Part shown: one piece after another, positions 32,564 to 38,778 of the stretch
Numbering within the stretch: position 1 is the stretch's first letter
Layout of the letters: every line of letters begins with the position of its first letter
IMG/VR virus record: IMGVR_UViG_2908959467_000004
Reading direction: 5' to 3' (one strand)
Source: a virus
Lineage: Duplodnaviria; Heunggongvirae; Uroviricota; Caudoviricetes
DNA: 42,273 nucleotides
Program-made: the position numbers and the translations under genes
Notes under the pieces: model-generated
Databases searched by the model: none
Seen by the model: the letters and a program-made list of their open reading frames with translations, nothing else
Told to the model about the DNA's origin: nothing

Positions 32564-33112
32564 ATGAAACTGAAGTTGAACAATGTTCGTCTGGCCTTCC
32601 CGTCTCTGTTTGAAGCTAAAACTGTAAACGGCGAAGGCGATCCGCGTTTCTCCGCAGTATTTTTAATGTCACCCAAACACCCACAACTGGAAGAAATCCG
32701 TAAAGCTATGAAGCAGGTAGCGAAGGAAAAATGGGGGGAGAAGTGGGAGTCCATTTATAACCAGCTGGAGAAAAAACTCAATCTGTGCCTGCATGATGGT
32801 GATGAAAAAGCAGAGTATGAAGGCTTTCCCGGCAATTTCTTCCTGAACGCTGCTAACAAAGCGCGCCCAGCTGTTCTTGATCGCGATCGTTCGCCACTAA
32901 TTCAGGCTGATGGACGTCCCTATGCAGGGTGCTATGTAAACGCCGTTATCGATATCTGGGCACAGGACAATAATTTCGGTAAACGCATTAATGCCTCACT
33001 CGGCGGAGTCCAGTTCCTGCGAGACGGCGATGCATTCGCTGGCGGCGGAGTGGCAAGCGCTGACGATTTCGACGATATCAGCGAAGGTGCTGATGCTGAA
33101 GCACTAATTTAA
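32564..33112 (+). CDS. ssDNA-binding-like protein, DUF2815 family
   Basis: 182 aa; N-terminus MKLKLNNVRLAFPSLFEAK; paired with the DUF2800-like nuclease and DNA polymerase. Confidence 0.6.
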   Translation: MKLKLNNVRLAFPSLFEAKTVNGEGDPRFSAVFLMSPKHPQLEEIRKAMKQVAKEKWGEKWESIYNQLEKKLNLCLHDGDEKAEYEGFPGNFFLNAANKARPAVLDRDRSPLIQADGRPYAGCYVNAVIDIWAQDNNFGKRINASLGGVQFLRDGDAFAGGGVASADDFDDISEGADAEALI

Positions 33113-33133
33113 AAATATTCATCCCCCAGCTAC

Positions 33134-33802
33134 GTGCTGGGGGATCTCATGAGGGAAAGAATAATGTCACAGCCCGTATTAACTAATTACCTTAAAACTC
33201 AAATCATCAATAACGCACTTGAGAAAGCGGGTATCCCCAAACGTAAATCAGCACTACGAGCTGCTCGTGTTGAATGGGCCGAACGTGTTCGGCTTGCAGC
33301 TATCGGGGGCGTAGAGAAAGAAGCTGAAATATTAAAAAATATAAAAAAAATAGAAACACTGGTATCAAAATTCCCCGAAGCATTAAAAACCGCCAATAAC
33401 ATTATCAGGGAAGAGTGTTACATGTGTCTGAATCTGGCAGGTTCTCGGGTTACCGTCTATTTCAACGGTAACTACCGAGGATATGAATCAGGGTCACCAG
33501 ACCATATTCACAAAATCGCGCCGGGGGAATTTACCCTTCTGGCAAATGACCCTCTAGTTACAGAGTTTTACGGGTTTGATACACTTTATGAGCAGATACA
33601 GAGCGATGAGTCAGACATTCGACAGAATGTCAGCGCTGCACTCAGTAAAGTGCGCACAGTTAAGCGCCTGCTGGAAGAGTGGCCTGAAGCTAAAGAACTT
33701 CTGCCAGCCGATGCACCATCTGCTCCGCTTCCGCCAGCTATACGACGCGAAACTCTCAACGAAATGATCGGCCTCCCTTCTGACGAAGGGGTAGATGCTT
33801 AA
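33134..33802 (+). CDS. hypothetical protein
   Basis: 222-aa ORF; internal ATG at 33164 is an alternative start. Confidence 0.4.
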   Translation: MLGDLMRERIMSQPVLTNYLKTQIINNALEKAGIPKRKSALRAARVEWAERVRLAAIGGVEKEAEILKNIKKIETLVSKFPEALKTANNIIREECYMCLNLAGSRVTVYFNGNYRGYESGSPDHIHKIAPGEFTLLANDPLVTEFYGFDTLYEQIQSDESDIRQNVSAALSKVRTVKRLLEEWPEAKELLPADAPSAPLPPAIRRETLNEMIGLPSDEGVDA

Positions 33803-33869
33803 TATTTCTTATAACAAAGGCTGGCTTAAGAAAATAGTTATCCAAACCAGCCTACCGCAATACTAAAAA

Positions 33870-34139
33870 TTAAAATTCATTGAATTTAAAAAGACATTTC
33901 CCTATTGGATTGCCATAGTCTCTACATACCGAAATGCTGTCCCATACAGGCTGAGCCAAACACCCAAGAAAGAACCCAATAAGCGCAAAAATTATAATTT
34001 TGGGAAGAACACGATCCTTAGGACCTTCTTCACGTTCGAGCCATGCGCCACCAGCCCGAACTATTCTCCCTAAAATATAAAGAATGGGGAAAGCAATAAT
34101 ACCTATCAATGAAAGTATTCCGATACCAAAGCTAAACAC
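33870..34139 (-). CDS. small integral membrane protein, oppositely oriented moron
   Basis: 89 aa; hydrophobic helices ILSLIGIIAFPILYIL and IIIFALIGFFLGCLA; AT-rich; antisense to the replication operon. Confidence 0.5.
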   Translation of the reverse strand: MFSFGIGILSLIGIIAFPILYILGRIVRAGGAWLEREEGPKDRVLPKIIIFALIGFFLGCLAQPVWDSISVCRDYGNPIGKCLFKFNEF

Positions 34140-34195
34140 CGCCGTCTCCTTGTTTATTTACACCTACATAACCATATATCACACAAGGTTATTTT

Positions 34196-36259
34196 ATGTC
34201 CAATATACTATGGGGTGACCTAGAAACCTATTGCGAAATCCCTATTACGAACGGTACCCATGCGTATGCCGAAGGCGTTGAAGTGATGCTGTTCGCATGG
34301 GCTATCAACGACGAGCCCGTAAACGTGTGGGATATCACTGCCGGTGGTGGTATTCCACACGGCTTATACGAAGCAATCGCAGCCCCTGAAACCCTGCTTT
34401 ATTTTCATAACTCTCACTTCGACCGCACCGTCCTGCGTTATGCAATGCCGCGCCTGGCACCGCCAGTCGAACGTTGGCGCGACACAATGGTGCAGGCGCT
34501 GGCGCACGGTCTCCCGGGGTCTCTGGGGGAACTCTGCGAAGTACTAGGCGTCCCGCAAGACAAAGCGAAGGACAAAGAAGGTAAAGCGCTGATCCAGCTG
34601 TTCTGTAAGCCACGCCCGAAAAACAGCAAACTGCGCCGGGCCACCAGCAAAACCCACCCGGAAGAATGGCGGCGCTTTGTTGCTTACGCCGGACTGGATA
34701 TCGAGGCAATGCGCGAAGTCTATAAACGTCTGCCGAAGTGGAATTATCAGGGGACAGAACTGGCGCTCTGGCATCGTGATCAGCAGATCAACGACCGGGG
34801 CGTCTGCATGGACATTCAACTCGCGCGCGCTGCGATCGAAGCGGTAGACCAGGAGCAAAAGCGCCTGGCAAAGCGTACACAGGAAATGACTGATGGCGAA
34901 GTGCAGGCAGCAACACAACGGGACGCGTTGATTAAGCACATCGTTGAATCCTACGGTGTGGAGCTACCAGACATGCAACGCAGTACTCTGGAACGTCGTA
35001 TAGCCGACCCCGATTTACCATCTGCCGTGAAAGAACTGCTGGCTATCCGCCTGCAGGCCAGTACTACCAGCACCAGTAAATACAAGGCACTGATGAAAGG
35101 CGTAAGCCACGACGGGCGCTTACGCGGTACGCTACAGTTCTGCGGGGCGTCACGTACCGGTCGTTGGGCCGGACGGCTATTCCAGCCCCAGAACCTTCCC
35201 CGCCCTTCACTAAAACAGGAACAAATAGACGAAGGCATCGAAGCACTGAAAGCCGGATGTGCAGACCTGCTGTTTGACAATATCATGGAACTAACCAGTT
35301 CAGCGTTACGTGGCTGCATTATCGCGCCAACAGGCAAAAAACTGGTGGTAAGTGACTTGTCGAACATTGAAGGCCGTATGCTGGCATGGCTGGCGGGAGA
35401 AGAATGGAAACTGAATGCATTCAGAGAGTACGACGCCGGAACGGGTCCGGACTTATATAAACTGGCGTATGCAAAAGCTTTCGATATTGCACCAGATGAT
35501 GTTGATAAACACATGCGTCAGATCGGTAAAGTCATGGAACTCGGTCTGGGTTATGGCGGTGGTGTATCGGCTTTCATCACTTTTGCTCTGGTTTACGGTC
35601 TCGATCTCGACGAGCTGGCGAACGCCGCACTGCCAAACATTCCCCGCGATGTTATCCGCGAGGCGAAAAGCTGGTACAACGAATCGGTTAAACGTAAGTC
35701 GACCTTTGGCCTGTCCGAGCGTGTATTCATCGCATGTGACTCGCTCAAGCGCCTGTGGCGCAGGGCGCACCCGGCGACCTGCGATTTCTGGTACGAACTG
35801 GAGCGCACCGTCCGCACTGCAATCGCCACACCGCAAAAAACATTGTATTGCGGTTATCTTAAAATCCGCCGCGATGGCGCGTGGCTGCGCATACAGCTAC
35901 CATCCGGACGCGCTGTATGCTACCCCTCTCCGGTTATCGAAAAAGGGAATATCACCTATATGGGTGTTAACTCTTATTCGCGTAAATGGCAACGACTCAA
36001 AACCTACGGCGGAAAGCTGGTAGAGAACGTCACCCAGGCGGCCGCCCGCGACGTTCTGGCCGGAAACATGCCGCTTATCGAAGATGCCGGTTACAGCATT
36101 GTGCTGACGGTACACGACGAGGTGATCACCGAAGCACCTGACACAGAAGATTTCAACGATAAAGAGCTTTCCGCGCTTCTCTCCAATAACCCCGAATGGG
36201 CGCCCGATATCCCACTGAACGCTGGCGGTTTTGAGGCGTACCACTACCGTAAGGATTAA
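34196..36259 (+). CDS. DNA polymerase, family A (PolA-like)
   Basis: 687 aa; motif B-like [16 protein letters not shown] and motif C-like VHDEV; N-terminal exonuclease-like region. Confidence 0.85.
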
Positions 36260-37460: not shown

Positions 37461-38461
37461 ACCCTAACGCAGCACAATGGCTGCGTAACCTTATTGCTGC
37501 AGGTCATATCGCCCCGGGTGAAGTTGATGAAAGGAGTATCGAAGATGTCGCACCAGACGACTTGCGCGGATTCACACAGTGCCATTTCTTCGCCGGGATC
37601 GGCGTCTGGTCTTATGCTCTGCGTCTGGCCGGATGGCCGGATAACAAACCGGTCTGGACAGGAAGTTGCCCGTGCCAGCCTTTCAGCTCGGCTGGTAAAG
37701 GCGCTGGGTTTGATGACGAGCGGCACCTATGGCCAGCACTATTCCACCTCATCAGCGAGCGACGCCCTAAGCTGGTATTTGGCGAACAGGTTGCGGGAGT
37801 CAATGCCTGGTTCGATCTTGTACAAACTGACGTGGAAGCAGTGGACTACGCCTTTGGGCTTGTCCCGTTTCCGGCTGCGGGCGTCGGTGCCCCGCATATC
37901 CGAGATAGAGCGTATTGGGTGGCCGACGCCAGCGGCGAGCGATCACAGCGGTGGCGAAAGCGCCTCAATAGCATTGAGGAAGATGTCTGGAGATCGTCGA
38001 CCGTCCGGCAACACGCTACACAGCTCCCTGCGGAATTTTGCTCACCTAGCGGGGTGGTACACCCCAACCTGCAACACAAACCCACAGCCGGAGACAAAAC
38101 GCGGTCTAGAAACCTTAGCGGGACTATCCAGATTAGCGGGATGGCCGACAGTGACGACGATCGACAACAACCAAGTTCGTGCCGAGGGCGCAGCGGCCAA
38201 TCATACCGAACGGGGAACGACCCTCGGCGGCGCTGCGAGAATCTGCGGCCCAATACGATTAACGGCTGCTGGGATGGTGCTGACTGGCTCCTCTGCCGGG
38301 ATGGTCGCTGGCGGCCAGTTGAATCCGGCACATGCCCGTTGGCTAATGGGATTACCTCCAGAGTGGGACGACTGCGCGCCTACGGCAACGCGATAGTCGC
38401 ACCAGCTGCCGCAACATTCATCCGCTCGTTTATGGAATGCGCAGGATACGACCTTATTTAA
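37433..38461 (+). CDS. DNA (cytosine-5) methyltransferase, Dcm-like
   Basis: 342 aa; motif I FFAGIGV, motif [15 protein letters not shown], motif VIII-like [10 protein letters not shown], motif X-like YGNAIVAP; a second long ORF (37494..38396, +1 frame) with MTase-like motifs overlaps it. Confidence 0.7.
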
Positions 38462-38778
38462 TGCCACTCACATCTGGCATGATACCGTCCAGAAGGTAAT
38501 TGCTTATATACAACGGAGCCGCCCATGGCATAAGTATAAGCATGAAGTTTTGTCCAGAAGTCCCCATAAACTAGTATTGGGGCTAAAAATTTTGGATCGC
38601 TAACCATAGATGTAGCAGGAAGCTCGAAACCTTTAGAAAGAATGTTTACCAGTGAAGGGTAATTTTCAAAATCAGTGCTATTCCCGCCCACCTCTAAAGC
38701 ATCCAGTTCAAAGTCGAGCACTCCACCATTTTTGTAATACTCCGGAACAGTTAACCCTGATGTTAACAAAGTAGCCAT
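38458..38778 (-). CDS. hypothetical protein, oppositely oriented moron
   Basis: 106 aa; strong SD AGGAGG 8 nt upstream; lower GC; divergent from the helicase gene. Confidence 0.5.
   Translation of the reverse strand: MATLLTSGLTVPEYYKNGGVLDFELDALEVGGNSTDFENYPSLVNILSKGFELPATSMVSDPKFLAPILVYGDFWTKLHAYTYAMGGSVVYKQLPSGRYHARCEWH

Follow-up and report, generated by a model that had tools for sequence, protein, structure and literature searches.

A small antisense gene in an Escherichia coli prophage encodes a predicted inner-membrane hairpin protein and has the anatomy of a moron

Resistance of lysogens to phages through small membrane proteins of the prophage is a known but thinly sampled phenomenon, and very few of the families involved have a mechanism. 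HK97 gp15 is a small inner-membrane protein for which superinfection exclusion has been demonstrated (Cumby et al. 2012, reviewed in PMC3594210), T4 Imm confers immunity by blocking the injection of DNA (Lu and Henning 1989, listed in PMC11436027) and P22 SieA, an inner-membrane protein expressed from the prophage, alone suffices to stop the entry of superinfecting DNA (PMC10883804). Genes known as morons possess a promoter and a terminator of their own, deviate in GC content and are expressed from the prophage (PMC3594210). Here we analyze a gene of 89 codons at positions 33870 to 34139, on the minus strand of IMG/VR record IMGVR_UViG_2908959467_000004. The whole stretch of 42,273 nucleotides (hereafter the window) is an E. 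coli prophage inserted between yfhH and yfhL, and the small gene lies between the genes of a single-stranded DNA-binding protein (SSB) and a DNA polymerase, antisense to both. A preliminary description of the locus had suggested an exclusion protein, or a membrane toxin or immunity protein, that is made in the lysogen.

We are highly confident that the gene is real, that it is an accessory gene with an independent organisation and that its product is an inner-membrane protein with the predicted fold of a helical hairpin. With respect to function, superinfection exclusion that protects the lysogen is the reading we favour, by analogy with the systems above; it should be regarded as tentative and as falling somewhat short of an even chance. 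The signals of the gene are as follows:

33870..34139, minus strand: coding sequence of the 89-aa protein (predicted two-helix inner-membrane protein), GTG start and TAA stop, taken from the list of open reading frames (ORFs)
34146..34151, minus strand: Shine-Dalgarno motif AAGGAG, 6 nt before the GTG start, read from the sequence
33814..33858, minus strand: terminator-like hairpin 3' of the stop codon, containing AGGCTGG/CCAGCCT and followed by UUUGUUAU on the minus-strand RNA
34191..34219, minus strand: weak candidate promoter (prediction only), -35 GTCACC (34219-34214), 17-nt spacer, -10 TAAAAT (34196-34191), scoring 8/12 in a hexamer scan

The ORF is present as first described, and RefSeq carries the identical sequence as hypothetical protein WP_000490741.1. 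In the family alignment its N-terminus lines up with the N-termini of the homologues, and therefore the GTG start is correct. Of six upstream regions of homologues that were examined, five have a purine-rich motif resembling a Shine-Dalgarno sequence (AGGAG, AAGGAG, GGGAG or TGGAG) before the start; the sixth, from Roseateles, has no obvious motif of this kind. The AT-rich pocket that had been reported is also found: GC content is 39.3% in the ORF, against 54.4% in the polymerase gene, 49.0% in the SSB gene and 50.4% in the window. The inverted repeat said to bound this pocket exists (AGGCTGG at 33818-33824, CCAGCCT at 33847-33853), but it does not bound it: both arms lie 3' of the ORF only, as part of the terminator-like hairpin. 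The RNA fold of this hairpin has a free energy of -23.2 kcal/mol (z = -3.5), with 1 of 200 shuffled sequences equally stable. Since a U tract follows the hairpin on the minus-strand RNA, while the plus strand has none, it looks like a one-way terminator of the small gene that the early operon would pass unstopped. A strict terminator scan left it out owing to its 9-nt loop (the limit being 8 nt) and its interrupted U tract. Strong hairpins are found as well 3' of the Serratia, Providencia and Pseudomonas homologues and of the homologue at locus L032.

An exhaustive HMMER search of 1.84 billion representatives returned 118 cluster representatives at E <= 1e-3, 36 of them at E <= 1e-10. Nearly all members are 80-100 aa long and align over their full length, with the consensus MxxFSxGxxSxxxAxxFxxLYL...R...AW..R...PKxRV....GFxxGSxxQPxWD....C...G.....C. 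In the alignment Gly58 and Cys71 are invariant, and Gly6, Gly54, Gln62 and Cys81 are each conserved in more than 90% of the members. Values of dN/dS, taken only from homologue pairs with unsaturated dS, are 0.07, 0.16 and 0.22: the family is under purifying selection. Given the 118 representatives, the conserved motifs, the low dN/dS and the translation signals, the ORF is a genuine gene, far beyond what chance would produce, and a chance ORF is ruled out. Apparent fusions, proteins of 114-201 aa that carry the domain C-terminally, were considered and rejected: their starts seem to have been called too far upstream, and their N-termini are of low complexity. A single-sequence word-based search gave only E. 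coli copies with 98-99% identity, its profile version added little, and IMG/VR yielded nothing but near-identical copies in E. coli prophages. From species-representative genomes, a degenerate DNA pattern that was built by hand and checked against known loci recovered 16 true members and one false positive. Scanning of all 69 aligned members gave only scattered chance matches in Pfam, and two members match phrog_8574 (best E = 3e-6), a group with unannotated function that does not match the protein of the window itself.

The two hydrophobic helices of the preliminary description are confirmed. Kyte-Doolittle peaks cover residues 1-30 and 42-67, and the AlphaFold model built with the family alignment (mean pLDDT 89.6) has helices at 7-33 and 43-73 with a loop of nine residues between them, as well as a short helix at 78-87. 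The predicted layout consists of a first transmembrane segment at about residues 3-25, a basic cytoplasmic loop (25-47), a second transmembrane segment at about 47-66 and a periplasmic tail with Cys72 and Cys82. Lys and Arg together average 4.9 residues in the loop between the helices and 1.9 in the C-terminal tail, and in 82 of 87 members the loop is the richer of the two. According to the positive-inside rule basic segments are cytoplasmic, and because of this charge bias we infer that the loop faces the cytoplasm and that both termini are periplasmic. The Cys-x9-Cys pair would then lie in an oxidising compartment, where a disulfide between helices 2 and 3 is plausible. Conserved motifs are predicted on both faces of the membrane: AW..R...PK[D/E]RV in the cytoplasmic loop and QPxWD....C...G.....C in the periplasmic tail.

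The gene occupies a variable slot, for which the following boundaries were found:

33113..34195, no strand: whole variable slot, from the SSB stop codon to the polymerase ATG, here with an Nmad5-family gene (plus strand) and the small gene (minus strand)
33779..34168, no strand: cassette proper, the segment replaced in comparison with the L004 variant that retains the Nmad5-family gene, with breakpoints from local blastn

Of 5426 complete E. coli genomes, about 158 contain a related prophage, and 31 of these 158 have the small-gene cassette. The 393-bp segment 33803-34195 occurs in 31 of the 5426 genomes, each time with at least 99.5% identity. Homology with five other prophage variants ends at 33112/33113 and picks up again at 34196 (in L007, at 34202). 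Overall, among the approximately 158 prophages the junction between SSB and polymerase has at least five alternative contents, and most of these contents include an antisense gene directly before the polymerase: one for a soluble protein of 229 aa (L004), for a protein of 209 aa (L005 and phage vB_EcoM-606R2) or for proteins of 199 aa (L006 and L008). In one variant the slot has a BRO-N gene alone, on the plus strand. Three hydrophobic helices, one at the N-terminus and two at the C-terminus, are seen in each of the 199- and 209-aa proteins, which belong to or weakly match phrog_10579 (no known function). The slot is thus prone to exchange, and what it gathers are mostly antisense genes for membrane proteins. 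That the small gene is a truncated remnant of the 199-, 209- or 229-aa genes is ruled out by the lack of a common Pfam or PHROG family and of any visible likeness between the sequences, and by the full-length homologues, which usually measure 80-100 aa; similarity was judged here by family matches and by reading the sequences rather than by pairwise alignment.

Descriptively, these observations place the gene among the morons as characterized in PMC3594210, its terminator-like hairpin and its promoter being candidates and its expression from the repressed prophage presumed. It is a replaceable insertion in comparison with close relatives (31 of 158; breakpoints 33113/34195 for the slot and 33779/34168 for the cassette) and its base composition differs from that of the surroundings (39.3% against 49.0-54.4% GC). 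Its own Shine-Dalgarno motif, the hairpin downstream, the deviant GC content and the presence or absence among near-identical prophages together argue for an independent unit.

The host element is a temperate myovirus-type E. coli prophage. Late genes, lysis genes, the Q antiterminator, a VapE-type primase and a small HTH gene are located on the minus strand; the plus strand carries the gene of a LexA/S24-type repressor, followed by the early operon (DUF2800 nuclease, DUF2815/Enc34-type SSB, Nmad5, polymerase, methyltransferases, VRR-NUC and SNF2). The integrase gene lies at the far end of the prophage on the minus strand, and a lambda-family holin and an endolysin are encoded on the late strand about 9 kb from the small gene. 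Both direct neighbours of the ORF are on the plus strand and are those given in the preliminary description: a 222-aa gene, which belongs to the Nmad5 family (PF18757, E = 4e-56), and a family A DNA polymerase of 687 aa. The description had also read the orientation of the small gene as a pointer to expression in the lysogen, and this argument is not supported. The ORF is antisense to the early operon and is not co-oriented with the repressor gene; as the repressor gene shares the plus strand with the replication operon, the orientation merely uncouples the ORF from that operon and gives no tie to the lysogeny genes.

Some further features of this prophage lineage deserve mention. Presence of the Nmad5-family neighbour (33134-33802, plus strand) in the slot is variable, and phage mutants that escape the E. 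coli Tmn defence system were mapped to Nmad5 in a 2025 conference report (PMC12908700). A second antisense gene interrupts the plus-strand early operon at 38458-38778 (minus strand), between the cytosine methyltransferase and SNF2 genes; its product is a soluble protein of 106 aa with no annotation, and a counterpart of the same size and orientation is found in Serratia prophage remnants (L010 4330-4650, L012 4785-5105). Related prophages of E. coli (L003, strain BH100N) and Providencia stuartii (L030/L031) have the same chromosomal neighbourhood, composed of the yfhL ferredoxin gene, acpS, pdxJ, recO, era and rnc; the attachment site therefore appears to be conserved across families of Enterobacterales. 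Longer polymerase genes exist in the lineage as well (971 aa in Morganella, L040:3756-6671, and about 944 aa in E. coli O121, L007:2075 onward, against 687 aa here). The Morganella polymerase has an insertion of about 275 residues near residue 454, suggestive of an intein or a homing-endonuclease insertion, and in L007 and L008 HNH and NUMOD4 endonuclease genes are located upstream of those for DUF2800 and SSB.

Outside E. coli, three homologues are found at the same place near the polymerase. The Serratia nevei homologue (50% identity, in degraded prophages) is divergent from the polymerase gene at 54 nt from its start, the Providencia stuartii homologue (34% identity) lies at 21 nt in a prophage at the equivalent yfhL-acpS-pdxJ-recO site, and the Morganella morganii homologue is divergent at 20 nt. 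The polymerases of these slot hosts are 71-75% identical in all pairs, the small proteins only 33-50%; this difference could reflect a much higher evolutionary rate of the gene or a refilling of the slot from different branches of the family. As a side note, the E. coli protein is 46-48% identical to the copy of a Pantoea lambdoid prophage and 50% to the Serratia copy, against 34% to the slot copies of Providencia and Morganella.

The gene is thus found divergent from the polymerase in four genera, at a distance of 20-56 nt, while the other side varies (Nmad5, nothing or SIR2), and it might be argued that it serves the lytic cycle of the phage itself, either as a replication-linked membrane anchor or regulator, or by controlling the polymerase through divergent transcription (interference or antisense). 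In support of the latter, a transcript from the candidate promoter at the polymerase start codon would be antisense to the polymerase ribosome-binding site. Nonetheless, most related E. coli prophages do without the gene and hold unrelated genes or BRO-N only, GenBank has at least three of the gene-less variants as complete phage genomes, members in other phages are located far from replication genes, and many members lie outside phages. We therefore consider a role in the phage cycle quite improbable.

The remaining phage contexts differ from that of the polymerase slot. In the Pantoea lambdoid prophage the homologue is located between lysis and terminase genes on the opposite strand, another adjoins a tape-measure gene, also on the opposite strand, and at four Pseudomonas loci (the clear prophages L036, L041 and L042 and the possible remnant L033) it is divergent from a metallopeptidase-DUF2280-terminase-portal module. 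In most phage contexts, though not in all, the homologue runs opposite to the flanking phage operon. Other copies are carried by an integrase-bearing integrative element of Roseateles (beside AbiTii), a primase-integrase element (beside Tox-SHH cargo) and a Sulfuricurvum plasmid. The family thereby extends over Gamma-, Beta- and Epsilonproteobacteria as single-gene cargo of prophages, integrative elements and a plasmid, and in all contexts the gene is solitary, with no recurrent partner gene. Genes of defence type are found close to several copies: a TIR gene matching PADLOC PDC-S35 (E = 1e-108) lies just after the polymerase in vB_EcoM-606R2 (L002:6129-6890) and in the Serratia prophage (L011:5052-5813), and in Providencia (L030; 8293-9795 and 11958-13016) a 500-aa SIR2_2 protein is encoded in the SSB-polymerase slot, between the homologue and the SSB gene, with a gene containing a RelA_SpoT domain further upstream.

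Many bacterial small membrane proteins bind and tune membrane machines. The protein might likewise be a lysogenic-conversion factor without a role in defence, which binds or tunes a machine of the host inner membrane such as a transporter, sensor kinase, protease or redox enzyme. The conserved motifs on both membrane faces suggest specific protein partners, and the gene is always solitary and is also found at chromosomal sites outside phages; PMC3594210, too, mentions small proteins of the envelope. On the other hand, the slot and nearby positions hold genes of defence type as well as alternatives in rapid exchange, a pattern more typical of conflict genes, and the small protein diverges far faster than the flanking polymerase (34-50% against 73-75% identity). 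Consequently, we rate such a host-directed role as rather unlikely.

The recurrent carriage on prophages and other mobile elements, the defence-type neighbours (SIR2, TIR/PDC-S35 and AbiTii), the fast divergence and the replacement by other membrane proteins agree with an envelope conflict gene. For the superinfection exclusion that we favour, the following course may be envisaged. The small protein would be made from the repressed prophage, as its own small transcription unit running against the early operon. It would bind a conserved envelope component or the injection apparatus of the incoming phage, and entry of the superinfecting genome would be blocked at the inner membrane in the manner of T4 Imm, HK97 gp15 or P22 SieA. 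After induction, plus-strand read-through from the early operon would run head-on into the small gene and oppose its transcription; as the hairpin does not terminate on the plus strand, this read-through could switch off the gene during lytic growth.

Several observations weigh against superinfection exclusion. A strict scan gave no sigma-70-like promoter in 33600-34500, and the candidate listed above, the best of a looser hexamer scan, has a poor -35 and overlaps the polymerase start codon. By tblastn no homologue was obtained in 50,697 deposited phage records. The 89-aa protein has no match in Pfam, PHROG, PADLOC or NCBIfam, apart from one chance NCBIfam score below threshold (E = 0.028; 13.8 bits against a cut-off of 246 bits); with the PADLOC-DB 2.0 HMMs there were 0 families at E <= 0.1, and a sequence profile search of the PDB gave no match. 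In Foldseek comparisons with PDB and BFVD no match went below E = 0.5, as one would expect of a helical hairpin. The adjacency to the polymerase, kept across four genera, could mean a role in the phage's own cycle. In one lambda-like contig the homologue lies between terminase and portal on the same strand, within the head-gene operon. Finally, three members are located 15-33 nt downstream of genes related to type I secretion (T1SS), on the same strand, and about ten further members have contexts that are not clearly phage and are uninformative; the function of the family is therefore not specific to phages.

The three T1SS-linked members give rise to the main rival explanation. In the first (L024 8001-8276 / L025 2123-2398) the gene of an ABC exporter with a C39 peptidase lies 28 nt upstream and an HlyD-type gene is nearby; the second, from Polaromonas (L026 8001-8258, the same as L043), follows the gene of a 1281-aa RTX protein; and the third (L014/L015 8001-8336) follows an RTX/T1SS/HlyC cluster, after which genes of the ABC-3C conflict system are found. 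Such positions hint at a family role linked to secreted toxins. The window protein might accordingly be an orphan immunity protein against a membrane-targeting toxin or bacteriocin exported by T1SS, so that the lysogen resists the toxins of competitors and not phages. The three members are independent, an exporter with a C39 peptidase is typical of bacteriocin export, known microcin and colicin immunity proteins are likewise small proteins of the inner membrane, and one copy is located beside Tox-SHH cargo. Against this, neither a toxin nor an exporter is encoded near the copies in the window and in other prophages, a cognate gene for a small toxin was not identified beside the T1SS-linked copies, no known immunity family in Pfam or NCBIfam is matched, and the link, as a raw count, concerns only three of about 28 contexts. 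We consider this explanation unlikely, though still the foremost of the rivals; the host-machine modulator, the role in the phage cycle and the membrane toxin follow in order of falling likelihood.

A membrane toxin or abortive-infection effector, whether a type I toxin with an antisense RNA from the plus strand or a pore former triggered by infection, fits worst and appears most improbable. The protein is small and hydrophobic, read-through of the operon to which its gene is antisense would give an RNA with full complementarity, and AbiTii and toxin-antitoxin genes adjoin some homologues. Type I toxins are usually shorter than 60 aa, with a single helix and a dedicated small RNA, whereas this protein has 89 aa, two helices, conserved motifs on its soluble faces and a predicted periplasmic Cys pair. 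It has no conserved partner gene and no match to a holin or toxin family. The adjacent antisense RNA for which the preliminary description had proposed a search did not turn up: no Rfam family is found in 33000-35000 (no further search for a conserved non-coding element was made). Moreover, the plus-strand operon is repressed in the lysogen, and therefore the supposed antitoxin RNA would be missing at the time when the cell must survive. Of the classes suggested in that description, exclusion or immunity thus remains the most plausible in view of the moron-like anatomy, while the membrane toxin is disfavoured by the motifs, the Cys pair and the absence of a partner gene.

A bolder version of the favoured reading, which we would call doubtful, is that the protein founds an unnamed and widely mobile family of single-gene inner-membrane 'shield' proteins. 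In this version the cytoplasmic loop and the disulfide-stapled tail would bind a conserved envelope machine and block the entry of foreign macromolecules, both phage genomes and membrane-active toxins secreted through type I systems, and the site upstream of the polymerase would be a dedicated exchange hotspot for envelope-defence genes.

The gene had earlier received an annotation as hypothetical, and elements of this kind are familiar; literature searches for WP_000490741.1 and for the name of the related phage gave no result. New are the family itself, which has no entry in Pfam or NCBIfam and no functional entry in PHROG, its predicted architecture, its distribution and the SSB-polymerase junction as an exchange site. 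With about 120 sequence clusters, clear motifs, a confident model and the T1SS link as a specific alternative, the family provides a useful resource. The 31 prophages with the gene and the roughly 127 near-identical prophages with other genes in the slot form a natural experiment, for which convenient hosts are available, including sequenced uropathogenic E. coli strains; lysogens with the cassette include UPEC F11, BH100 and NCTC9022. If the protein indeed blocks DNA entry or the action of toxins, it would represent a new single-gene envelope defence and the SSB-polymerase junction would be a place to search for others; if it has no measurable effect, the small gene remains an ordinary hypothetical gene of a prophage.

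How does the locus finally compare to the described systems? Homology to the known exclusion proteins (T4 Imm, HK97 gp15/YebO, P22 SieA/SieB, Cor and Llp) was found neither by PHROG, Pfam, NCBIfam and PADLOC, nor by folds in BFVD and PDB, nor by tblastn. The protein matches no holin family and its gene lies outside the lysis cassette, which sets it apart from holins and pinholins. Like the colicin V and microcin immunity proteins it is small and predicted to reside in the inner membrane, and one family member follows a C39-peptidase ABC exporter at 28 nt; there is no sequence match, however, and the neighbouring toxin or exporter gene that marks such immunity genes is seen at L025 (C39-ABC) and, as RTX/T1SS genes, at two more loci, but not in the window. 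P22 SieA is larger and unrelated in sequence. T4 Imm, with about 83 residues and two predicted membrane helices, falls in a similar size class and is likewise a small inner-membrane protein that acts alone; it differs as a protein of a virulent phage that is made early in infection, and it has no detectable homology to the window protein. HK97 gp15, reportedly YebO-like, with one predicted transmembrane segment and a gene in the tail operon, differs from the predicted two-helix hairpin with its Cys-x9-Cys tail, encoded antisense in a replication operon, and shows no sequence similarity to it by PHROG and Pfam. In its organisation HK97 gp15 nonetheless offers a likeness on several points: both are single small additions to a prophage, with a deviant base composition, a terminator-like signal, a product predicted in the inner membrane and homologues outside prophages.

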